A DNA stretch of 64,000 nt from Patescibacteria group bacterium (GCA_018971045.1 JAGWVF010000001.1:75480-139479); one strand, 5' to 3'. Counted from the first letter of the stretch, positions 12,991 through 64,000 are shown. A program made the numbers and translations. The notes: generated by a model not told the origin, from the sequence alone.

Positions 12991-14715
12991 ATGTTCCCGC
13001 TCCATGACCCGCCCTCCGAGACGATTCGCGCTGAACTCGCGGCGTATGACGATCTCACCGCCGCGCTCCTTGCGCGGCGCGGCATCGAGACGAAAGATGC
13101 CGCCGAGAGATTTCTCTCGCCTTCGTATGACCTCCATCTGCATGATCCGCTTCTCATGACCGATATGCCGAAGGCGGCGGAGCGGCTCGCGCGCGCGATT
13201 TCCGCAGGAGAAAAGATTGCGGTGTGGAGCGACTATGACTGCGACGGCATTCCAGGCGGCGTTCTTCTCCATGACTTTCTGAAGAAATGCGGCGCGGATT
13301 TCGAAAACTACATTCCGCATCGCCACGACGAAGGGTACGGGATGAACGTACCGGGCGTAGAAAAGCTTGCGAAAAACGGCGTGTCTCTCATCGTTACGGT
13401 GGATTCTGGCATTACGGATGTCGAACCAATCGCGCGCGCGAACGCGCTTGGCATGCAGGTAATTGTCACCGATCATCATCTGCCCGGCGCGGCGCTGCCG
13501 GATGCGTTCGCGATAGTGAATCCGAACGCCCGTGATGACGAGCGGTATCCGTTCCGCTCGCTCTGCGGATCGGGCGTCGCGTGGAAGCTCGTCTGCGCGA
13601 CGCTCGCGACCGCCCCCGCTCTCCGCGAGAGCATACCGCTCGGTTGGGAGAAGTGGCTTCTCGACATGGTCGGACTCGCGACCATCGCAGACATGGTTCC
13701 GCTTCTTGACGAGAATCGCGTGCTCGCGGCGTACGGACTTCTCGTGATGCGCAAGTCGCCGCGAGTAGGTCTGCAAAAACTGTGCCGCGGGATGCGCGTC
13801 GAACAGAGAACCATTACCGAAGATGATGTCGGCTTTATGATCGCGCCGCGGATTAACGCGGCGAGCCGGATCGGATCGGCTCGGGACGCCTTTGATCTTT
13901 TCACGACTTCTGACGAGGGCACTGCCGATCTTCTCGCGAAGAAACTCGAGAAGGCGAACCGCGCGCGCAAGGCTGAAGCAGGCGCCATCACGCGTGCGGT
14001 GCACGCGCGTCTCACAGAGCGCGGCGAGATGCGAAGCGTGATCGCGATTGGCGATCCGGAGTGGCGGCCTGCGCTTCTCGGACTCGTCGCGAACACGATC
14101 GCCGACGAATACGAGCGGCCTGTTTTCCTTTGGGGGAGAGAGGGGAACAATCGTCTGAAGGGATCGGTGCGCAGCGGCGGCTCGGTACACGCGCTTGAAC
14201 TCATGCGCGGCGCCGAAAAGGTATTTGAGGACTTCGGCGGGCACGCGGCGGCCGGCGGTTTCACCGTTCTTGATACCGAAATATTTTATTTGGAAGACCA
14301 TTTGGTTGCGGCATACGATCGTCTGGCGACCGAAGGAACTCTCGCCGACGATCTCTCGACGCGCGCCGATATGCTCGTAACGCCGGAAGACATTACCGAT
14401 TCATTTTTACGGCGTATCGAAAAGCTCGCTCCGTTCGGCCAAATGAATCCGAAGCCGGTGTTCTTGCTCCGTGAGGTGATAGCGAGAGAGATTACACGTT
14501 TCGGAAAATCCGAAGAACATTTAAAGATGAGAATCGCATCGGCGGACGGACGCGCGCTTGATGCGGTCGCCTTCTTCGTCAAAGGCGCGATCGCGCGCGC
14601 CGCCGGCGCACTCACCCGGGGCAATCGTGTTCACGTTCTCGCGCATCTCGAGCGCGACGCCTTTTCTCGCGGCAACCCGGTACGATTACGGTTGCTCAAT
14701 CTGAAAGGTGTATAG
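12991..14715 (+). CDS. recJ: single-stranded-DNA-specific exonuclease RecJ
   Basis: DHH motifs (DYDCDGI, VIVTDHHLPG), DHHA1 region; start moved to MFPLHDPP. Confidence 0.85.
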   Translation: MFPLHDPPSETIRAELAAYDDLTAALLARRGIETKDAAERFLSPSYDLHLHDPLLMTDMPKAAERLARAISAGEKIAVWSDYDCDGIPGGVLLHDFLKKCGADFENYIPHRHDEGYGMNVPGVEKLAKNGVSLIVTVDSGITDVEPIARANALGMQVIVTDHHLPGAALPDAFAIVNPNARDDERYPFRSLCGSGVAWKLVCATLATAPALRESIPLGWEKWLLDMVGLATIADMVPLLDENRVLAAYGLLVMRKSPRVGLQKLCRGMRVEQRTITEDDVGFMIAPRINAASRIGSARDAFDLFTTSDEGTADLLAKKLEKANRARKAEAGAITRAVHARLTERGEMRSVIAIGDPEWRPALLGLVANTIADEYERPVFLWGREGNNRLKGSVRSGGSVHALELMRGAEKVFEDFGGHAAAGGFTVLDTEIFYLEDHLVAAYDRLATEGTLADDLSTRADMLVTPEDITDSFLRRIEKLAPFGQMNPKPVFLLREVIAREITRFGKSEEHLKMRIASADGRALDAVAFFVKGAIARAAGALTRGNRVHVLAHLERDAFSRGNPVRLRLLNLKGV

Positions 14716-42877: not shown

Positions 42878-42952
42878 GGTGCGCCCAGCAGGTTACGATC
42901 CTGCGACCTTCTCCTTAAAAGGGAGCTGCTCTACCAGCTGAGCTATGGGCGC
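42878..42952 (-). tRNA. tRNA-Lys (anticodon UUU)
   Basis: Minus-strand GCGCCCATAGCTCAGCTGGTAGAGCAGCTCCCTTTTAAGGAGAAGGTCGCAGGATCGTAACCTGCTGGGCGCACC: perfect 7-bp acceptor stem, 4-bp D stem, 5-bp T stem, anticodon loop CTTTTAA. Confidence 0.8.
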
Positions 42953-42986: not shown

Positions 42987-43943
42987 CTAGTAGGTGAACG
43001 CGTCAACGGTATTCCCCTTGCTGTCGAGAAGCTTAACGACTTCGTTCTTTGTGCGCCACATCGAATTGTTGCGGCCGAGATAGACGCGCCAGACGGTTCC
43101 TTCAAAATCGGCGTCAGACTGGTGAGCATCGACGCAGCCATTGTAGTTGAGATACTTTACGATGAAGCTCTGGCACGCGCCCGACACGTTGACCGGCGGC
43201 GAGAGAGCTACCTGACACCGCGAGAGAGTATTCACGTAGTTGATGCACGCGGCATCGCGGATATAGCCGTTGCCGTAAAATGCGGATAACTCATCCGAAG
43301 GCGAGGGGCAGTTTTGCGGCAGGGAGGGGGAGAAATTTTGGAACGTGCTGAAATAGCCGATACATTTATTCTCTCGGAATGAGGCGCCGATGGGCGATTG
43401 GCCGGAGATAATGATCACGCGCTCGCCCGGGGAGAGCACGATATCCTGGACAGGATTCACGATGCCGGAGGTCGGTACCTCGGTCCCTTTCGGGATGACG
43501 ACCGCATTTCCGGTCGCTTCGCTCATAAGCGTCCATCCGGAGATGTCGACCGGTACGCCCGCGTCCTGGGCGACTGAAATAGTCAGATATTCATTTCGAG
43601 GATCCAGCGAGCCGGCGCCCGAGACGTAATGGCTCATCGAAACGCCGCTGCTATAGATGGAAGAGTTGCCGAAAGAGACGCCCTTAAGCATGGGTATGGA
43701 TCCCTTTGAACCTGCCGTGCCGATAGCCCCGCCGCCGTTTGAGGATCCGGGGAGTGAAATATTCGTGCCGCCGACCACAAAGGCTGAACGGGGAAGTTGA
43801 AGATAAGAACCGCCGCCAAGCTCCTGCGGTTGGGCAAGCGTCGGGCCGGTGAACGAGATCGGGCGCGTGGGGCCGCCGATCGCGATCCAAATGAGAAATA
43901 TGAACACGAATATTCCTAAGAAGAACCAGGCGTCGTGTTCCAT
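42987..43943 (-). CDS. membrane-anchored lamin-tail-domain (LTD)-containing protein
   Basis: N-terminal TM; ...DISGWTLMSEATGNAVVIPKGTEV...VLSPGERVIIISG resembles LTD motif; Cys-rich C-terminus. Confidence 0.45.
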   Translation of the reverse strand: MEHDAWFFLGIFVFIFLIWIAIGGPTRPISFTGPTLAQPQELGGGSYLQLPRSAFVVGGTNISLPGSSNGGGAIGTAGSKGSIPMLKGVSFGNSSIYSSGVSMSHYVSGAGSLDPRNEYLTISVAQDAGVPVDISGWTLMSEATGNAVVIPKGTEVPTSGIVNPVQDIVLSPGERVIIISGQSPIGASFRENKCIGYFSTFQNFSPSLPQNCPSPSDELSAFYGNGYIRDAACINYVNTLSRCQVALSPPVNVSGACQSFIVKYLNYNGCVDAHQSDADFEGTVWRVYLGRNNSMWRTKNEVVKLLDSKGNTVDAFTY

Positions 43944-43961
43944 ACGGGAATAGTAGCAAAT

Positions 43962-44504
43962 TTATTTGGAAGAGAGTGCCGCTTTCAGACGATTATCCTT
44001 GCCCGCGACCGTGTCGGGGACGGATTGAAGAGCTTTGCGCGCCTCCCGCTCGGTATAGCCGAGCGCGACGAGAGTGTCGAAGACCTCTCCGTCGGCGTTG
44101 TCGTGCGTGCGCGGCCCCACCTTGTCGGCGAGCTCGACCAGCATCTTTTCCGCGCTCTTTTTCCCGAGCCCGACCACTTTGGTGAGATAATCGAGATCGC
44201 GCTTTCCGATCGCGCCCTCGAGCGCCTCGCGCGGAGCGCGCCGGAGCGCGCCAAGAGCCGTTTTTGGCCCGACGCCGGCTACCGTCAAGAGGAGCTCGAA
44301 GAAATCGCGATCGCCGTCAGCGGGGAAGCCGTAGAGTTCGAGCCCGTCCTGTTTAAGCGCGAGGTGCGTCGCAAGGGTCGCTTCACTCCCGATCGAGAGC
44401 GCCTCGGGAGCGCTCATCCGCACCTCAATGCCGAAGCCGGCCGCCTCGATAGTGGCACTCGCTGGCCCCACCGAGAGCACCTTCCCGCGAATCTGGCGAA
44501 TCAT
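43962..44504 (-). CDS. ruvA: Holliday junction DNA helicase subunit RuvA
   Basis: MIRQIRGKVL... OB-fold, HhH motifs (VAGVGPKTALGAL), C-terminal domain III. Confidence 0.85.
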   Translation of the reverse strand: MIRQIRGKVLSVGPASATIEAAGFGIEVRMSAPEALSIGSEATLATHLALKQDGLELYGFPADGDRDFFELLLTVAGVGPKTALGALRRAPREALEGAIGKRDLDYLTKVVGLGKKSAEKMLVELADKVGPRTHDNADGEVFDTLVALGYTEREARKALQSVPDTVAGKDNRLKAALSSK

Positions 44505-44828: not shown

Positions 44829-45416
44829 AAAGAGGTGCCCCCGCTCGGTCTCGACCCTAGCACAGTGAGACCCTGCAAGGGTTCTTTGGCGACTTTCAGA
44901 ATAGCACAGCGAAGCCTCTCGGTCAGGGGTCTGCGCCCCGGATTATGACAAACCGAACACAAAAGCGAACTTTCGCAGTGTTCGCTTCCTGTTCGCCTTT
45001 CTTCAAAACAGCAAGAGGATAAAAGGCAATCTACGCAAACACGCCCATTGTTGCAGCCGCGGCTTATCCACACCACCAGCTTGCTCGCATACGCTGCGCC
45101 AATAGTCACAGACCGGTACAATGTAAGTACGCGAGTCCGGAAGGCAAACCCTGAAAGACATCGGCGACCGATTGCAAAGGCAAATGCAGTCGTTGAACGG
45201 AACAGAAGACTCGACGGACAGCCTCTTAGAGAATTCCCGTTCAAGCGAATCTAAGAAACAGAGTACGGCAACCCCGGAATCTAGAACTTCTTACCTTCGA
45301 GCCGGATCTCCCACGCCACAAGGCTAAGGATCCAAGCAAAAGCATTAGCGTCTGCGAGTATAGCGAGATCGCTCTGCACTCCTGCTTGGTTTTTCTTATG
45401 TACCTAACAACTGAAT

Positions 45417-46742
45417 ATGACAAAGCACGATCTAAAGATAGAGTACGTGGCGCTCTCCTCCCTCCGCCACCCTGAACGAAATCCTCGCATATGGTCGAAG
45501 GAGGCGACCGCACAACTCAAAGAAAGTATCGAACAAAACGGAATCGTTGACCCGCTCATCGTGAACAATGCGCCAGAGAGAAAAGGAATCATCGTCGGTG
45601 GAAATTTTCGCGCAGAGGTCTTGAAAGAAATGGGGTATGACACGGTGCCGGTCGTATACGTGAATATCCCTGATCCCGCGAAAGAAGCTGCTCTCATAAT
45701 CCGCCTCAATAAGAACACTGGGGACTGGGATCTCAACTTGCTTGCTGAATTCGATTCCTTTCTACTCTCTGGCATTGGATTCACCTCCGAAGAACTGGAT
45801 GGGATATTTCCAGCTGAGGAGAATCCTGAGGTGTTCGACCTCCAGCGCGAACTCGCCAAACTCGAAATTACGAATGTCGATATCAAGCCCGGCGACAAGT
45901 TCGCATTCGGCGATTCATTCGTACGGTGCGGCGACAGCATGAGTGAAGCAGACATGCTCGCGCTCATGGGTGGCGAGCAGGCGGATATGGTGTGCACAGA
46001 TCCTCCGTACATACTTGATTATCTCAAAGGGAAAAAGAAGCAGGATGGCAAGGTGACTGAAGGATTCGGTCTGAAACGTGATCGCATCTATCTCGGCACA
46101 ACATCGCTCCCAGACAATTTCAGCGACCTATGGATGGCAGCCGTGGCGAAAGTGCAGAAGCCAGACTTCTCGATTCTCATCTTCGAGCACCCCAAGAACC
46201 TGAAGACCATCTGGACCGCGCTTGAGAAGCATTGGAAGTACCGCAACACCATCACCTGGCACGTCCCGAATCGCGTCCAAGGATTCGCAGCTAAGCACAA
46301 GTTCTTTAACAAACAGGATATTGCTCTTGTGGGCACGGGCGGCGAAGTATCGCTCAATCTCGAAGCCGAGGACGAGTTGTTCCAGAACGAGTACGAGAAT
46401 GCGATTTATGCCACTTCGGGCAAACCGCACTTCGAGTCGTACGAGAAGGGCAAGAAAATCTGCCCCACAGACTTCATTGAACATATCGCTGCCGATGCAA
46501 AATCCTCGGGCCAAAGCATTATCTTCGGCACGAAACCAATCGAGCTACTCATCCCGTACATCAAGGTGCTCACAAAGCGTGGCGACATCGTACTTGAGCC
46601 ATTTGGGGGTAGTGGTTCAAGTGCCGTGGCCGCATGGAAGCTCGGCCGACGATTTTTCCTGATGGAAAAATCGCCCGTGTACACGGCTGTCATCTTGAAA
46701 AGGCTCGAGAAGGTTACCGGCATCAAGCACAAGAAGGTATGA
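45417..46742 (+). CDS. ParB-like nuclease domain fused to N6-adenine/N4-cytosine DNA methyltransferase (phage-type)
   Basis: N-terminal ParB motif (GIVDPLIVNN, GGNFRAEV); MTase motif IV TDPPY and motif I EPFGGSGSS. Confidence 0.8.
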   Translation: MTKHDLKIEYVALSSLRHPERNPRIWSKEATAQLKESIEQNGIVDPLIVNNAPERKGIIVGGNFRAEVLKEMGYDTVPVVYVNIPDPAKEAALIIRLNKNTGDWDLNLLAEFDSFLLSGIGFTSEELDGIFPAEENPEVFDLQRELAKLEITNVDIKPGDKFAFGDSFVRCGDSMSEADMLALMGGEQADMVCTDPPYILDYLKGKKKQDGKVTEGFGLKRDRIYLGTTSLPDNFSDLWMAAVAKVQKPDFSILIFEHPKNLKTIWTALEKHWKYRNTITWHVPNRVQGFAAKHKFFNKQDIALVGTGGEVSLNLEAEDELFQNEYENAIYATSGKPHFESYEKGKKICPTDFIEHIAADAKSSGQSIIFGTKPIELLIPYIKVLTKRGDIVLEPFGGSGSSAVAAWKLGRRFFLMEKSPVYTAVILKRLEKVTGIKHKKV

Positions 46743-47128
46743 GAGGTGCGCACTGCAAGAAGATCCTCATCGAGGAGCTTAAGAAGAAGCCCGTTGTTGA
46801 GGCGGCGTGCCTGAAAGCAGGTGTCGGCAGAACCGCCTTCTACGATTGGAAAAAGAAGGACCCGAAATTTGCAAAAGCCGTTGAGCTGGCACTTCAATTC
46901 GGCAAGGACTTTGTCTCGGACATCGCCGAAATGCAACTCCTGAATGCCATAAAGTCGGGAGACTTTCGAGCTCTCGCTCTGTGGCTTAAGACGCATAAAA
47001 AGGAATACGGAAACCGGATGGAAATCGAAGGCGCACTCACCCTCATCGAGGAACTATCACCTGAAAAGAAAGAGGTCGTAAAAAGATCGCTCGCTCTAGC
47101 AAACCTAACTCTCAACAACCATGAATAA
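46739..47128 (+). CDS. phage terminase small subunit (HTH type)
   Basis: CLKAGVGRTAFYDWKKKDPKFAKAVELA HTH signature common in TerS proteins; ATGA overlap upstream and 8-nt overlap with TerL. Confidence 0.5.
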   Translation: MRGAHCKKILIEELKKKPVVEAACLKAGVGRTAFYDWKKKDPKFAKAVELALQFGKDFVSDIAEMQLLNAIKSGDFRALALWLKTHKKEYGNRMEIEGALTLIEELSPEKKEVVKRSLALANLTLNNHE

Positions 47129-48668
47129 CGACACTGCAAAGAAACCGTTAGACGATGACTCTTTGGACGCCGTATTGAACGACCGCGCCGTACGGCAAGC
47201 CGTCACGCGAGAGAGCCATCTGATGTTCTTTCATCTGTACTTCCCGCACTACGTGAAGTATGCGATTGCGGAATTTCAGAAAGATATCTTCCGCATCACA
47301 GAGGATTTGTCGAACCGTCTCGCCTGTATCGTTGCATTCAGAGGATCCGGCAAGTCGACTCTTGTGACCTTCTCGTATTCACTCTGGGCGATTCTCGGCA
47401 TCCAGCAGAAACGTTTCGTGCTCATCATCTGCCAGACCCAAGCACAGGCACGACAGCATATGAGCAACCTGAAATATGAGCTTGAACATAACGCACTGCT
47501 CAAGAGCGACCTCGGACCCTTCCGCGAGGATCAGACAAGCGGCGACTGGGCGATGTCATCGCTCGTCTTCCAGAACACGGGTGCTCGCATCATGATCGCA
47601 TCGGTGGATCAGAGTATTCGCGGTATCCGTCATCGAGAGTACCGACCTGACCTCATGATTCTCGACGATATCGAGGACATGCAGTCGGCAAAGACCATGG
47701 ACAGTCGTGCGAAGCTCTTCGATTGGTTCACCCGCGAGGTCGTGCCGCTTGGCGATGTTGGAACGCGCATCATCATTGTCGGGAACTTGCTCCATGAGGA
47801 CGCGCTCGTGATGAAGCTGCGGCGGTTGATAGACAAGAAAGAACTCAAAGGCGTGTACCGCTGGTTTCCATTCCTCGATGAATTTGGCGGCTCGATGTGG
47901 CCGGGCAAGTTCGATACCAAGGAGAAGATAGAGGAACTGCAGCAGAGCGTCGCAAATGAACTTGCATGGCGGCAGGAGTACCTCCTTGAGATTGTCTCTG
48001 ACGCAACGCGCGTCATTCATCCCGAGTGGATCCATCACTACAAGAAAATGCCCGCGACCACTGCTGCCAATGTCTACCGCGAGGCATACATCGGCATGGA
48101 CTTGGCGATCTCAGAACGGGAGAAGGCGGACAAGACCGCCATGGTCGTCGGACGGGTATTCGGCTGGGGTACCGATATGCGCATATACATTCAACCGAAT
48201 CCTGTGAACGAGAGGATGGACTTCCCGACGTCGCTTGAGAAAGCAAAGGTTCTGTCATCGACGCTTGATAACGGCAGGAAGGCGAAGATGTATATCGAGG
48301 ACAATATGTATCAGCGCGCTCTACCGCAGATGCTACAACTCGCCGGATATCCTGCCTTCGGTGTTGTGTCGCTCGGAGACAAGCGGTCGCGTATCGCGCT
48401 CATCAGCCACCTCATCAAGCAAGGCGTCGTCCTATTCCCCGAGACTGGGTGCGAGGAGATGATCTCTCAACTCACTGACCTCGGCAGAGAGCCGCATGAT
48501 GACTTGGCGGATGCCCTCGCGCTTCTCGTGTCAGAAGTGTCGAAATTGAATCAGGTGTATCAGCCATTTCCTGACCCGAGCAGATACTGGTCGAAAGAGC
48601 CCGGTGAGGAAGACGGTCTTGATAACAGCTACCCGATTACGAGAGGTATGAGAGACATGATTTTTTAG
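47121..48668 (+). CDS. phage terminase large subunit
   Basis: Walker A AFRGSGKST, Walker B MILDDIED, C-terminal RNaseH-like nuclease region (IGMDLA, ...DD); 515 aa. Confidence 0.8.
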   Translation: MNNDTAKKPLDDDSLDAVLNDRAVRQAVTRESHLMFFHLYFPHYVKYAIAEFQKDIFRITEDLSNRLACIVAFRGSGKSTLVTFSYSLWAILGIQQKRFVLIICQTQAQARQHMSNLKYELEHNALLKSDLGPFREDQTSGDWAMSSLVFQNTGARIMIASVDQSIRGIRHREYRPDLMILDDIEDMQSAKTMDSRAKLFDWFTREVVPLGDVGTRIIIVGNLLHEDALVMKLRRLIDKKELKGVYRWFPFLDEFGGSMWPGKFDTKEKIEELQQSVANELAWRQEYLLEIVSDATRVIHPEWIHHYKKMPATTAANVYREAYIGMDLAISEREKADKTAMVVGRVFGWGTDMRIYIQPNPVNERMDFPTSLEKAKVLSSTLDNGRKAKMYIEDNMYQRALPQMLQLAGYPAFGVVSLGDKRSRIALISHLIKQGVVLFPETGCEEMISQLTDLGREPHDDLADALALLVSEVSKLNQVYQPFPDPSRYWSKEPGEEDGLDNSYPITRGMRDMIF

Positions 48669-48695
48669 AAAAAATCATGTTTCTATCCAACGCAA

Positions 48696-48727
48696 AAAGC
48701 TCGTAGATACCTGCGAGCTTTTTCGTC
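48696..48727. terminator. bidirectional rho-independent terminator between convergent genes
   Basis: aaaaagctcg-tagatacctg-cgagcttttt hairpin flanked by A/T runs on both sides. Confidence 0.5.
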
Positions 48728-48729
48728 CA

Positions 48730-49449
48730 CTATTTGAGTAGACCAAAATCTTTTTGCACCAGAGCGAAATCCGCATCTACGCTCGTCTCGTCTTTCATCA
48801 GTTGCGCGGTCGTCTTGCCGCTAACCTGCCAGTCGATCGCGTCCGATCCCCAAGTATTGAGGTCGCTATCAAGCTGCGCCATGTCATCACGCCAGGTACC
48901 GAGCGCGTCGGGTTCCGTCTGATTGCTGCCTGAGTAGCAATCGGAGGCTGTGGTGTATGCCTTGACGATTGAGTCGTAGAAGGAGGGTTCGTATGTAGAC
49001 CATGTCTTGCGCCACGCTGAGAAGTTGCTGGCCGCAGAACCCGGCACGGTGAGCGCCTGAAGGCCCGTAGAGCTGTTTGGGTACTGAGACGTACCAAGAG
49101 CGTCTTTCCCGTCCTTGTATGCCTTTGCATAGGCAGCAGTGACCTTCGGGAAAGAAGCGAGTATCGCTTGGGTACAAGAACTCGGCGTAGGTGCCGCTTT
49201 ATCGGTTGCTGGAGCTGGCGCTGTCGTTATAGGCGTCTCCGTTACAGCTTGCGCCACTGGCTGCGACAATGATTCTGCCGTTGGAGAAATAAGCGGTCTG
49301 GTAAATGCGTATCCGAGAAACGCGACGATCATTGTGGCGATAAGAAGATCGCGAGATCGAGGAATCGATTTAAGCAGTTCAGGTTTGGTAAAGGAGAGGA
49401 TAAAGCCGATAACGGACGCTACAAGAAGTAGCGCAAAGAAAGTGCTCAT
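48730..49449 (-). CDS. membrane-anchored hypothetical protein
   Basis: Start moved to MSTFFALLLVASVIGFILSF (single N-terminal TM); Thr/Pro/Ala-rich linker then soluble domain. Confidence 0.45.
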   Translation of the reverse strand: MSTFFALLLVASVIGFILSFTKPELLKSIPRSRDLLIATMIVAFLGYAFTRPLISPTAESLSQPVAQAVTETPITTAPAPATDKAAPTPSSCTQAILASFPKVTAAYAKAYKDGKDALGTSQYPNSSTGLQALTVPGSAASNFSAWRKTWSTYEPSFYDSIVKAYTTASDCYSGSNQTEPDALGTWRDDMAQLDSDLNTWGSDAIDWQVSGKTTAQLMKDETSVDADFALVQKDFGLLK

Positions 49450-49610
49450 GGTTTGCTGGTCGCGATTTGTAATGCCCGGAGGAGAGACGCACTGAACCCG
49501 CCACCGGGTGGGTCTTGCGACCCGACAAGGATTTCTCCCTGCCACGCGACCAGCGTTCCCCGATGACGGGTTCAGTACGCTGGTCGCGATTTTCGGCCAT
49601 GCCGGGAGAA
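49450..49610 (-). promoter_or_regulatory. structured 5' leader with alternative helices (putative attenuator/riboregulator)
   Basis: Minus-strand leader carries AATCGCGACCAGCG ... CGCTGGTCGCG ... AATCGCGACCAGC (segment 2 can pair with 1 or 3; segment 3 ends ~6 nt before the ATG), plus CTGAACCCG/CGGGTTCAG and a duplicated ATCCTTGT. Confidence 0.3.
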
Positions 49611-49902
49611 TCACAAGGATCCTCAAGCCGGTTTAGGCCTCTTTATTCGGTTTACAAGAACATGATAGCTCATTCGGGACTATCGTTGTAGACCCTAGCT
49701 TAGTATTGGAGGCTTGCGAAGGTGGTAGCTTTGCGTCCTTATGTAGGGCTCGGAATTCTGGTTCCGCACCCCTTCTGTTCCTGGTGGATTTGTGTGTGGT
49801 GAATGTTGAAAGTGGCAAGGTCATGGAATTGCCTGTGCGGGGTACCTAATCAGCTACTCATTTCGATATAAATCTGGTAAACTACAGGTAAGTTGGATTT
49901 AC

Positions 49903-50103
49903 ATGTCAAATCGCAAACAAATACCCAAAGACGAGATTATTACCCTGCAAGAGGCGTGCGAGATTTTCAATAGTCATTTGAATACGCTTCATAACGGGGA
50001 CAACAAAAAGGATACTTTAAGCGGTTTGTTTTGGTATGAGACGTGTCCAGAAATATCGAAAAGTTCAGGTGCTAAATCTTTTACGCAAAAGAAAATGATA
50101 TGA
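49903..50103 (+). CDS. small hypothetical protein at 5' edge of the AT-rich gene cluster
   Basis: 66 aa; first ORF after the GC drop; no family recognised. Confidence 0.3.
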   Translation: MSNRKQIPKDEIITLQEACEIFNSHLNTLHNGDNKKDTLSGLFWYETCPEISKSSGAKSFTQKKMI

Positions 50104-63557: not shown

Positions 63558-64000
63558 TCAGCGAATAGGTGTTTTACGAGCAGTTTGTAAATTTTCCTTT
63601 AAAGTATTTGCCAACTCGTCGCTTTGGATAATCAGAGCAAATTTTTCTGCGGGCGCGATAAGAGCAATCTTGTTTTTAAGAATCCTCACCTCAGCGGATT
63701 GATTATTTGCTGCCACATTTTTGGCTCCAAGTATTTCCTGGCGCGCCGCTTCTATACCCTCGTCACCATCAAAAAACTGCACCCGTGGCTTTTGCTTCGC
63801 CCCGCTCTGCATCGCTCTCAGTTTAGGCAGCAGGGACTTAGTTGTGGCAGTCAACTCTTTATATTTATCAGCAGACTCCTGCGCAATCTTCACCAGTCTC
63901 TCTGGAGATGCAGCAGTGTACAGCCTGACATTCTGCACATCTGAAGTGCTCACAAATCCGCGCTTCGCTAGAAAACTGAGCACGACATACACGGTACTCC
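63558..64000 (-). CDS. hypothetical protein, N-terminus beyond window end (possible regulator)
   Basis: Open frame continues past position 64000 (the M in the ORF track is a GTG); no transposase or enzyme motifs. Confidence 0.35.
   Translation of the reverse strand, partial: STVYVVLSFLAKRGFVSTSDVQNVRLYTAASPERLVKIAQESADKYKELTATTKSLLPKLRAMQSGAKQKPRVQFFDGDEGIEAARQEILGAKNVAANNQSAEVRILKNKIALIAPAEKFALIIQSDELANTLKENLQTARKTPIR

Follow-up and report, generated by a model that had tools for sequence, protein, structure and literature searches.

A compact methylase-terminase island beside rpsT in a Patescibacteria genome belongs to a family of capsid-less elements

We analyzed a stretch of 64,000 nucleotides from a Patescibacteria group bacterium (GCA_018971045.1, JAGWVF010000001.1:75480-139479), referred to here as the window. 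At 45417-48668 on the + strand it carries a translationally coupled operon encoding a ParB-domain DNA methyltransferase, a small terminase subunit (TerS) and a large terminase subunit (TerL). Three co-oriented phage-type genes had been proposed here in an initial annotation, and Pfam, PHROG and the fold of TerL bear this out. The first gene (45417-46742, + strand) encodes a 441-aa N6-N4 DNA methyltransferase with a ParB-N domain, which matched Pfam ParB_N (6.9e-10), N6_N4_Mtase (2e-19) and phrog_498 (3.4e-69) and contained the motifs DPPY and FGGSGS in its translation. Orthologues with 56-77% identity occupied the same position in 13 other loci, and the remaining loci had an unrelated methylase or methylase pair in place of this type. 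No cognate restriction enzyme was found near the gene, so that the window locus lacks the adjacent endonuclease of a type II restriction-modification system, and PADLOC returned only methyltransferase models, with zero matches of its defence models to TerS, TerL or the membrane protein described below.

The mechanical ORF for TerS begins at 46634; we chose the ATG at 46739, which overlaps the methylase stop codon (ATGA) and gives a 129-aa HTH protein (46739-47128, + strand). It is coupled on its other side as well, by an 8-nt overlap with terL. The protein matched PHROG TerS families (1.9e-7 to 7e-5); its Pfam HTH_Tnp_1_2 score of 27 bits fell slightly below the cut-off. As a small HTH protein directly 5' of terL it has the form and position of a TerS, and a homologue lay directly 5' of TerL in nearly all loci with sequence there.

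TerL (47121-48668, + strand, 515 aa) combines an ATPase domain with an RNase-H-like nuclease domain. It matched phrog_38 at 3.7e-73, and residues 324-469 matched Pfam Terminase_6C at 23.2 bits (cut-off 22.6). The Walker A motif (FRGSGKST, residues 73-80) and Walker B region (LMILDDIED, 178-186) are those of an ASCE ATPase. Across 19 homologues K78, S79, T80, D182, D183 and E185 were invariant and G75 was at least 90% conserved; the acidic residues D327, D460, D461 and D464, consistent with a nuclease domain, were also invariant, the catalytic residues having been assigned individually by inference and not by superposition. An AlphaFold model (pLDDT 74.6) showed the two-domain terminase fold, and when it was compared with the PDB using Foldseek the top 23 matches were all phage large terminases (3e-19 to 1e-10), with the PhiV-1, D6E, T4, HK97 and Sf6 terminases among the fold matches; it also matched the nuclease domains of the G20c, RB49 and HCMV terminases. 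A sequence profile of TerL alone found zero PDB entries. Judged by these residues and the predicted fold, TerL is apparently intact.

No portal, capsid or tail gene followed TerL in ORF and Pfam listings or in a comparison with phage proteins, in agreement with the initial annotation, which had also correctly placed a bidirectional terminator at the end of the module. This intrinsic terminator (48690-48726, both strands), between terL and a convergent gene, is a hairpin that folds at -20.9 kcal/mol (z = -7.5) when read on the + strand and at -18.3 kcal/mol when read on the - strand, with an A5 run on one side and a T5 run on the other; a simple terminator scan did not pick it up. The convergent membrane-protein gene had been drawn as far as 49626. 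The gene exists, but it occupies 48730-49449 on the - strand, and what remains of the ORF as drawn is a LOOT RNA (Rfam RF03000; 49510-49639, - strand) lying 60 nt upstream of the start codon. From its translation and AlphaFold model, the membrane-anchored protein is predicted to begin with two hydrophobic helices, followed by a linker rich in Pro, Thr and Ala and, at the C-terminus, a four-helix bundle, with pLDDT >85 across residues 90-239. The model had zero significant matches in the PDB, and homologues formed only 8 clusters. The LOOT RNA scored 70.2 bits, the gathering score being 46.4, and covered model positions 1-121, which makes it a full member of that family. Upstream of it lies a conserved stretch (49640-49721, - strand) that forms the right end of homology to L003, the corresponding locus of the closest relative. 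Since this homology (96% identity over 49540-49721) ends at 49721, we take that position as the junction with an inserted gene cluster.

On the left, the non-coding stretch reported at 44829-45416 proved real. It measures 588 nt and opens with a conserved non-coding element of ~100 nt, UP100 (44830-44934, + strand), directly 3' of the rpsT stop codon. The left edge of the island had been predicted to fall within this stretch, and we place it at UP100. The element holds two CTCGGTC direct repeats ~74 nt apart and is 70-81% identical to the left-end sequence of modules in other genera. A UP100 HMM gave 32 matches, every one on the + strand and upstream of TerL, which fall into ~24 non-redundant loci. 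Identity to L003 was 81% over 99 nt, compared with 65-76% for the flanking core genes; we found no structure with RNAalifold and no match in Rfam. UP100 is a candidate packaging site, but it may not serve as one, because two relatives (L228 and L238) have it next to rpsT but have no module there, and because it is the same in the window and L003 despite TerS proteins that are only 49% identical. Between UP100 and the methylase gene runs a non-coding leader (44935-45416, + strand) with no credible ORF and no Rfam match better than E = 7; blastn, blastx and tblastx detected nothing similar in any locus. In many other copies this position is taken by an additional ORF.

The GC content of the module was 51-53%, against 56-62% immediately to its left and 42% to its right. 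Although the intermediate value given in the initial annotation was thus measured, it lies within normal scatter, as module GC followed host GC across 63 loci (r = 0.87), a match that fits long residence as well as transfer among relatives. Among the ORFs and Pfam matches listed for 42-64 kb there was no lysis gene, and no homologue of a recombinase or S24 repressor occurred anywhere in the 64-kb window. The integrase, lysogeny switch and structural genes of an integrated prophage are therefore missing from the window, as are lysis genes from 42-64 kb, and with neither recombinase nor repressor in the window this copy would be unable to transfer itself.

The window copy of the island spans 44830-49721, directly 3' of rpsT. 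TerL was absent after rpsT in at least 19 metagenome loci that had RuvA 77-88% identical and at least 6 kb of sequence beyond rpsT, and which keep PolA-HolA-LTD-RuvA-S20. The terminase module is thus an accessory island, as first suggested, and not part of a conserved core synteny; it is absent at rpsT from many equally close relatives. Loci from three samples (L002-L004) carried the same island at the same site. Between the window and L003, TerL was 96% identical and RuvA 82%, and dN/dS was 0.03 for TerL and 0.086 for RuvA; the membrane protein was 81% identical with a dN/dS of 0.13. The dN/dS value indicates that TerL is under very strong purifying selection. Synonymous differences were 0.47-0.48 in TerL and the membrane gene and 0.53-0.68 in flanking core genes, in line with an island that has moved. 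The methylase-TerS cassette, by comparison, has been replaced between UP100 and approximately codon 19 of TerL, and the best match to the window TerS (L027, 57%) was also the best match to its methylase (72%). In sequence comparison TerL, UP100 and LOOT are strongly conserved against a diverged relative despite the absence of recombinase and repressor from the window.

We searched for the module more widely. TerL had more than 2,400 homologues, in 927 clusters (50% identity, E <= 1e-30). The best 120 were 56-96% identical; the few of these with a named source were Patescibacteria, and several lay on contigs of 150-430 kb. There were 156 matches in species-representative genomes, complete chromosomes among them, and complete genomes with the module include CP175956.1 and OY970175.1. 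The order methylase(s)-TerS-TerL was found in ~80 Patescibacteria species genomes, and in almost all loci with upstream sequence the three were on one strand; two had no detected methylase. Genes in the collected loci are simple ORF calls, and the collection scans used few peptide patterns, so these counts do not come from unbiased samples. The family core reads UP100, one or more methyltransferases, TerS and TerL, usually followed by LOOT RNA and an opposite-strand membrane- or secreted-protein gene, variable cargo and a large serine recombinase with the Pfam domains Resolvase, Recombinase and Zn_ribbon_recom. Where at least 9 kb of downstream sequence was available, the recombinase lay 3' in 41 of 56 loci, on the same strand in 40 and within 300 nt of TerL in 20. 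An S24 (LexA-like/CI-type) repressor forming a divergent switch lay upstream in 23 of 63 loci, and other loci had an ImmA/ImmR-like pair as the switch. Some assemblies carried two copies of the module. L074 and L082 share the element to ~40 nt past the recombinase stop codon, beyond which their right flanks differ, while L053 and L056 share the core only (93%).

Neighbourhood clustering showed no recurrent structural genes, and none occurred within 10 kb in ~90 loci; the capsid, portal and connector genes of capsid-forming PICIs were absent from every locus. When 1,790 ORFs of 73 real phage contigs were compared with the loci there was no structural match; the matches were to TerL, methylase and TerS and, beyond these, to a handful of proteins with no relation to them, including a helicase-type type I restriction subunit and a reverse transcriptase. 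All IMG/VR contigs with a TerL at least 39% identical had the same capsid-less layout, and the next match (L096, TerL 32%) had the all-one-strand layout of a phage. For GenBank phage TerLs, identity was mostly 22-25% across the greater part of the protein and reached at most 30% over part of it. Neither a helper phage nor a phage with a close TerL was found among GenBank phages and IMG/VR. Recurrent families included no replication module, the first ORFs of the operon being without Pfam or PHROG match, and none of 17 whole contigs was circular, as an excised element would be. Capsid-less methylase-terminase elements thus form a compact genomic island family that recurs in Patescibacteria.

SaPI/PICI-type and PICMI islands are small integrative elements with a terminal recombinase, a prophage-like repressor switch, their own TerS with which packaging is redirected, and accessory or defence cargo; they have no capsid genes and so require a helper phage. 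The family described here resembles them in its repressor, recombinase, TerS and cargo. It differs in encoding TerL in complete form alongside one or two DNA methylases, in using a large serine recombinase where PICIs use a tyrosine integrase, in having no recognisable primase/replicase module and in being confined to Patescibacteria; for the window copy, neither the recombinase that most of the family has nor the repressor was present within the 64 kb. Satellites with both terS and terL are known as cfPICIs, but these encode capsid, portal, protease and head-tail connector, none of which was present in the family's loci. The PLEs of Vibrio cholerae, which to our knowledge encode no terminase, have a large serine recombinase in common with the family, and their gene content is otherwise unrelated. 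One account of PLEs describes a phage-parasitic island that its large serine recombinase integrates and excises (PMC6002521). The late operon of tailed temperate phages opens with these three gene types, likewise in this order (phrog_498, TerS PHROGs, phrog_38 and the TerL fold), but in phages portal, protease and capsid genes come next, whereas the window continues with a terminator and a convergent gene, and its TerL is at most ~30% identical to any GenBank phage TerL.

The comparisons above show that 44830-49721 is a copy of this compact Patescibacteria island, and on balance we favor this account over its rivals. We are more tentative about its mode of action, and regard a helper-dependent, phage-satellite-like use of its own complete terminase as a plausible possibility. 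On that model, the operon would be switched on by induction or by helper-phage infection, the methylase would pre-modify DNA, and a TerS-TerL holoenzyme would recognise a site on the element, cut the DNA and pump it into helper-phage procapsids. Copies bearing a recombinase would excise before packaging; those lacking one, the window's included, would be restricted to in situ packaging, as in lateral transduction, or to interference with helper packaging, and such interference would benefit the host and account for the purifying selection. Lateral transduction, in one description, involves in situ packaging by non-excised prophages and PICIs, with adjacent chromosomal DNA packaged directionally (PMC12829572); by analogy, it could be how the window's non-excising terminase module acts.

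The initial annotation had gone further, suggesting that a phage-like vehicle may have brought in the terminase module and the adjoining PKS-NRPS cluster as a single composite island (45.4-64+ kb). The two are adjacent, the cluster occupies the island's usual cargo position, since the variable cargo of the family sits 3' of TerL, and its left junction holds a fragment like an excisionase-type HTH gene, of the type that adjoins the recombinase in L017. The cluster extends from 49722 to ~63.7 kb, with a GC of 42% versus 52% in the module. Because homology to L003 stops at 49721 and resumes at 63734, with both junctions inside the window, it is a separate insertion of ~14 kb, and L002-L004 have the island at the same site without it. 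The cassette also occurs in L169, on a contig that begins inside it, with no terminase gene in the following 4 kb; no terminal repeats were found at the cluster and no recombinase in the window. The PKS-NRPS cluster is thus a later, independent insertion at the cargo end of the island, and joint delivery, already contradicted by L002-L004, is hardly credible. Nor does a prophage remnant, also suggested at the outset, fit well. On that view a full temperate phage was reduced by deletion to the start of its late operon; the genes are indeed phage-type, phage late operons commonly begin with methylase-terS-terL, and the window has neither integrase nor structural genes. Against such decay, the same short layout, never longer and never with structural genes, recurs in the ~80 species genomes, TerL retains a dN/dS of 0.03 and invariant catalytic residues, the overlapping start and stop codons of the operon are preserved, and no phage in GenBank or IMG/VR has a close TerL. 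We regard this explanation as largely refuted and very improbable.

The module might also be a domesticated, gene-transfer-agent-like packaging unit whose head and tail genes lie at another place in the genome. Conservation of TerL above that of a core gene (61% versus 35% for RuvA in L007, besides the L003 values) and the agreement between module and host GC would fit; absence of the island at rpsT from many close relatives, two copies in some assemblies, the own recombinase and repressor of most copies, and the finding of no structural genes, either in the 64-kb window or within 10 kb at any locus, make it improbable. Another reading is a defence or addiction system complete in itself: the methylase would mark host DNA, TerS would recognise sequence, and TerL would cut or translocate unmarked phage DNA with no capsid, methylase and TerS serving as an exchangeable specificity cassette. 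The joint swap of methylase and TerS beside a TerL still 96% identical, and their shared best match in L027, point this way. So do the frequent defence neighbours (type I restriction-modification, ThsB-TIR, reverse transcriptase) and the continued selection on TerL without a recombinase. TerS and methylase identities were correlated at 0.48, as against 0.29 for TerL and methylase, but TerS and TerL correlated equally well (0.50). PADLOC, moreover, recognises only the methylases, methylases beside terminase genes are ordinary in phages too, and inducible mobile elements are typically marked by S24 or ImmA/ImmR switches and a serine recombinase, so that we consider a defence system unlikely. Similarly doubtful is its more specific form, a capsid-free, methylation-gated terminase that would recognise (TerS) and cut or translocate (TerL) foreign or unmodified DNA, in which the methylase-TerS pair would be the interchangeable specificity unit and a LOOT-controlled surface protein would act as partner; if true, it would represent a novel type of machine, derived from phage and used for defence or DNA handling, that is retained in ultra-small bacteria with few known defences.

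Patescibacteria account for a large part of bacterial diversity, and almost nothing is known of their phages, mobile elements or defences. If the family is a real element family, it would give them a widespread, recognisable mobile element with conserved TerL as its marker, a serine recombinase that might be turned into a genetic tool, and a well-defined place for cargo where defence, metal-resistance and, here, biosynthetic genes collect. It raises the question of what keeps a complete TerL under stronger constraint than RuvA in capsid-less cells. For genome mining, a lone TerL in a Patescibacteria genome should not count as a prophage. The family also gives a taxonomic and genomic home to LOOT, which was described as a metagenome-based RNA family in the Rfam 14 paper (PMC7779021): the RNA scored above the Rfam gathering score in 8 of 8 further loci tested, and a custom covariance model recovered it from 40 of the 89 sources, for the most part at 0.4-3 kb 3' of TerL.

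The three co-oriented genes that the initial annotation reported were recovered, at 45417-48668, and no portal, capsid or tail gene follows them. The first encodes a protein of 441 aa in which Pfam recognises an N-terminal ParB domain (6.9e-10) and a domain of N6/N4 DNA methylases (2e-19); it also matched phrog_498 at 3.4e-69. The second encodes TerS, a small HTH protein matching several small-terminase PHROG families (best 1.9e-7), and the third encodes TerL, a protein of 515 aa that matched the large-terminase family phrog_38 at 3.7e-73 as well as Pfam Terminase_6C. Because the TerS start overlaps the methylase stop (ATGA at 46739-46742) and the TerL start overlaps the TerS stop, the three genes form one translationally coupled operon. 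The hairpin beyond them (48690-48726) has A and T runs at its sides and can form on either strand (-20.9 and -18.3 kcal/mol). A sequence-profile search of the PDB gave no match for TerL, so a fold search was needed; the top PDB matches of an AlphaFold model (pLDDT 74.6) were solely phage large terminases (PhiV-1, D6E, T4 gp17, HK97 and Sf6), and the ATPase and nuclease domains were each also matched separately. Across 19 homologues there was no variation at the Walker A and B residues or at the nuclease domain's acidic positions. A defence-system scan by PADLOC returned methylases only. To the left of the module lie core genes for PolA, a HolA-like protein, tRNA-Lys, a lamin-tail-domain protein, RuvA and ribosomal protein S20.

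The end first assigned to the convergent membrane-protein gene beyond the hairpin was wrong: the gene ends at 49449, and 49510-49639 (-) is occupied by a LOOT RNA (Rfam RF03000; 70.2 bits, gathering score 46.4). The protein begins with two helices at its N-terminus, continues with a Pro/Thr-rich linker and ends in a four-helix bundle that AlphaFold modelled with confidence and for which a fold search returned generic four-helix-bundle matches only, nothing informative on function. LOOT is a metagenome-based RNA family according to the Rfam 14 paper (PMC7779021); here it is tied to Patescibacteria. Rfam's model matched all eight further loci tested, and with a covariance model built from the Rfam matches LOOT was detected in 40 of 89 sources. 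Its usual place is on the strand opposite to TerL, 0.4-3 kb downstream of that gene, and often just before a recombinase gene. Examples are 12371-12500 in L003, the relative with a 96%-identical TerL, 12304-12422 in L013, and 12992-13124 and 15967-16081 in L060, among others. LOOT lies 5' of genes for small membrane-anchored or secreted proteins of varied kinds (staphylococcal-nuclease homologues, DUF4352, tRNA_anti-like OB folds, peptidoglycan-binding proteins), a position that suggests a leader acting in cis and not a free sRNA.

More than 2,400 TerL homologues were present in the protein collection, the best 120 being 56-96% identical, and an exhaustive profile search (E <= 1e-30) gave 927 clusters at 50% identity. 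The few of the best 120 with a named source were from Patescibacteria (Paceibacterota, Parcubacteria, Nomurabacteria), several on contigs of 150-430 kb. Scanning species-representative genomes yielded 156 TerL relatives, and the 80 loci kept came from many Patescibacteria lineages, complete chromosomes included. The collection scans were based on a few peptide patterns, and ORFs of all loci, which derive from metagenome-assembled genomes, came from a simple greedy caller and were then clustered. Almost every locus having upstream sequence carried one or more methylase genes, then TerS, then TerL, all on one strand. A ParB-methylase akin to that of the window (56-77% identity) occurred in 13 loci; in the others the methylase was unrelated to it, and a second one of 257 aa often came next.

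The sole other widely recurring family in the ORF clustering was a large serine recombinase (Pfam Resolvase, Recombinase and Zn_ribbon_recom). It lay downstream of TerL in 41 of the 56 loci having at least 9 kb of downstream sequence, on the same strand in 40 of these 41. Its start was less than 300 nt past the TerL stop in 20 loci, and elsewhere 0.8-9 kb of variable genes intervened. In 23 of 63 loci a divergent HTH-peptidase-S24 (LexA/CI-like) gene preceded TerL by 2-4 kb, and others had an IrrE/ImmA-type peptidase with an HTH_3 partner; the operon's first ORFs in other loci gave no match in Pfam and PHROGs searches. In its fuller members the family thus carries a recombinase, a switch of SOS type and a region for cargo. 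Among the variable genes are type I restriction-modification systems (L013, L015, L017, L032, L074, L089), a ThsB-like TIR protein (with DUF2188; L037-L038, L040, L047), reverse transcriptases (L053, L066, L078) and a metal-homeostasis cluster with a P-type ATPase (L081, 3343-9947). Genes for defence and stress resistance gather in the module flanks and in the interval between TerL and recombinase, so the element acts as an island that carries cargo. None of 17 whole contigs was an excised form present as a circle.

Some loci departed from this pattern. Two terminase modules stand in tandem on single contigs at L045 1235-7588 and L094 911-11560, the latter with ribonucleotide reductase and PfkB kinase genes between them, and assembly PLSR01 has two modules on separate contigs (L027, L032). 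Six close TerL homologues (P0241, P0243-P0246, P0249) have 680-760 aa against about 500; the roughly 200 extra residues are mostly C-terminal and may reflect a gene fusion, an intein or an artefact of gene calling. Typical Patescibacteria-type modules also occurred in assemblies labelled "uncultured Gammaproteobacteria", "Flavobacteriaceae", "Bacteroidota", "Omnitrophota" or "Bacillota" (for example L019-L021, L030, L037, L039, L045 and L054), which are probably mislabelled or contaminated bins.

No structural gene was found in any module locus examined. When the loci were compared with 1,790 ORFs of 73 genuine phage contigs carrying distant TerL relatives, they matched only through TerL, methylase and TerS, plus a few unrelated proteins. 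Seven IMG/VR contigs with TerL 39-61% identical had the same capsid-less layout; the next match (TerL 32%) looks like a real phage. GenBank phage TerLs were mostly 22-25% identical over most of the protein, and at most 30% over part of it. Within the literature on Patescibacteria or candidate phyla radiation terminases, serine-recombinase satellites and LOOT, for which full-text coverage was incomplete, no description of the module or its association with LOOT was found.

The loci with the closest TerL (L002-L006, 96%) share the core neighbourhood of PolA, HolA, lamin-tail protein, RuvA and S20, followed by the module, membrane gene and LOOT, and RuvA-S20 also lies upstream in a Nomurabacteria contig with TerL 61% and RuvA 35% identical. 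These neighbourhoods first suggested a fixed, vertically inherited synteny, conserved in all relatives. That idea was ruled out by scanning metagenomes with the window's RuvA as anchor, which gave 80 loci, counted without dereplication, with RuvA 77-88% identical and thus at least as close as L003. All of the longer loci keep the PolA-HolA-LTD-RuvA-S20 order. In 19 of the 19 having at least 6 kb beyond S20, TerL, methylase, TerS and UP100 (the conserved non-coding element at the module's left border) were absent there, and other genes stood in their place, several of them recurrent between loci (seven examined). The module is therefore accessory at the rpsT site, and its left edge falls where the initial annotation had placed it, in the non-coding stretch after S20. 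Between window and L003, proportions of synonymous differences, which are near saturation, were 0.47-0.48 for TerL and the membrane gene and 0.53-0.68 for four flanking core genes; against six other relatives tested the core genes were at or near saturation. The element, or its core alone, is also common to other genome pairs at 88-93% nucleotide identity in different flanks. The lower synonymous difference and the recurrence in different flanks argue for a module that moved rather than was simply inherited. Module GC tracks flank GC (r = 0.87, 63 loci), which counts against recent long-range transfer. The intermediate GC noted in the initial annotation is uninformative, because the window's module (52.4%, host 55.3%) is inside the usual scatter. 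As for the core region itself, L003 1352-4729 compared with window 42878-42952 (-) and 42987-44504 has the tRNA-Lys in reversed orientation, and includes a LAGLIDADG-like ORF and, between the lamin-tail-domain gene and ruvA, a Mur-ligase gene, both missing from the window.

UP100 (44830-44934, +), about 100 nt of non-coding sequence, was found at the module's left side in about 24 non-redundant loci, always on the module strand and upstream of TerL. Within it, two direct repeats (CTCGGTC) lie about 74 nt from each other and vary in concert from locus to locus. It is neither a tRNA nor a tmRNA, and no Rfam hit was better than E = 7. A structured RNA was also rejected: RNAalifold with six sequences gave no covarying pairs on either strand, and with 14 sequences the + strand was without any structure. 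UP100 lies near S20 in six relatives. It is not strictly element-borne, as L228 and L238 have module-less copies next to rpsT followed by other genes (a P-type ATPase in L228). In four further relatives (L207, L209, L194 and L235; RuvA 78-82% identical) the contig ends about 70-620 nt past an UP100 beside rpsT, the pattern expected if assembly breaks at a strain-variable or repeated element. UP100 is a candidate promoter/operator, packaging site or recombination site.

Comparison with L003 gave dN/dS values of 0.03 for TerL (dS 0.77), 0.086 for RuvA, 0.13 for the membrane gene and 0.21 for S20. Nucleotide identity was 87% over 47178-49721, 96% for LOOT with the 80 nt upstream of it, and 81% over 99 nt of UP100, against 65-76% for core genes. 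Between UP100 and about codon 19 of TerL there was no nucleotide similarity, and the encoded proteins were 27% (methylase) and 49% (TerS) identical. The methylase-TerS cassette was therefore replaced by another family allele, with its borders still conserved. The window's best match for both TerS (57%) and methylase (72%) is L027, despite a TerL of no more than 58% identity. In 64 loci the correlation of TerS identity with methylase identity (0.48) was about as strong as that with TerL identity (0.50). No recombinase or S24 repressor homologue was found within the 64-kb window, and in L003 the 10 kb around TerL contain no recombinase, so in the sequence seen the conserved parts are maintained without means of self-excision.

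We are highly confident that the module is an intact operon encoding a methylase together with a complete terminase, that its family is capsid-less, accessory in distribution and subject to cassette exchange, and that TerL is strongly constrained. The element may be a phage satellite carrying its own terminase, an interpretation that we advance tentatively. After induction, DNA would be methylated, recognised by TerS, cut by TerL and pumped into procapsids from a helper phage. A copy lacking the recombinase, like that in the window, could only package in situ or disturb the helper's packaging; such disturbance would protect the host population, which could explain the selection on TerL. PICI/SaPI-type satellites and their capsid-forming relatives are the nearest known kinds; like the module family, they are integrative and have a repressor switch, packaging genes and cargo. 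The module family differs in its complete TerL without any capsid gene, its methylases, its serine recombinase, the lack of a recognisable replication module and its restriction to Patescibacteria.

As the main rival to a satellite we consider a defence or addiction system gated by methylation and independent of capsids, with methylase and TerS acting as its specificity cassette; we regard it as rather unlikely. A gene-transfer-agent-like system, with structural genes elsewhere in the genome, seems more doubtful still. The suggestion in the initial annotation of a prophage remnant is very hard to sustain, as a decaying prophage would not be expected to show a TerL dN/dS of 0.03 and module parts conserved with L003. 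Equally improbable is its proposal that module and biosynthetic cluster form one composite island. Homology to L003 stops at 49721 (L003 12582) and resumes at 63734-63782 (L003 12645-12693, 82%), so the stretch of about 14 kb between, with 42% GC, is an insertion relative to L003, and no terminal repeats of at least 10 nt surround it. The cluster was inserted separately: it landed at the family's usual cargo position but did not arrive together with the module.

At the cluster's left junction, 49873-50007 (+) covers the first 45 codons of a small ORF, which are 49% like an HTH_17/MerR excisionase-family protein adjoining the recombinase in L017; the ORF, for which Pfam gave no match, resembles a truncated remnant. 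It is unusual for reduced genomes of this kind to carry biosynthetic clusters. This one, a hybrid PKS-NRPS with its own phosphopantetheinyl transferase, also encodes an acyl-CoA-ligase-like enzyme, a prolyl-tRNA synthetase, an M15 dipeptidase, a 280-aa protein without Pfam match, an adenylation-carrier protein and a 2,026-aa KS-methyltransferase-KR-carrier-condensation protein. The same gene cassette, synthetase and dipeptidase included, stands on an unrelated contig of 37% GC (L169), where the large protein is 58% identical; that contig starts inside the cassette, and no terminase gene occurs in the 4 kb following it. The M15 dipeptidase is a D-Ala-D-Ala dipeptidase homologue, and the prolyl-tRNA synthetase may be a self-resistance copy.
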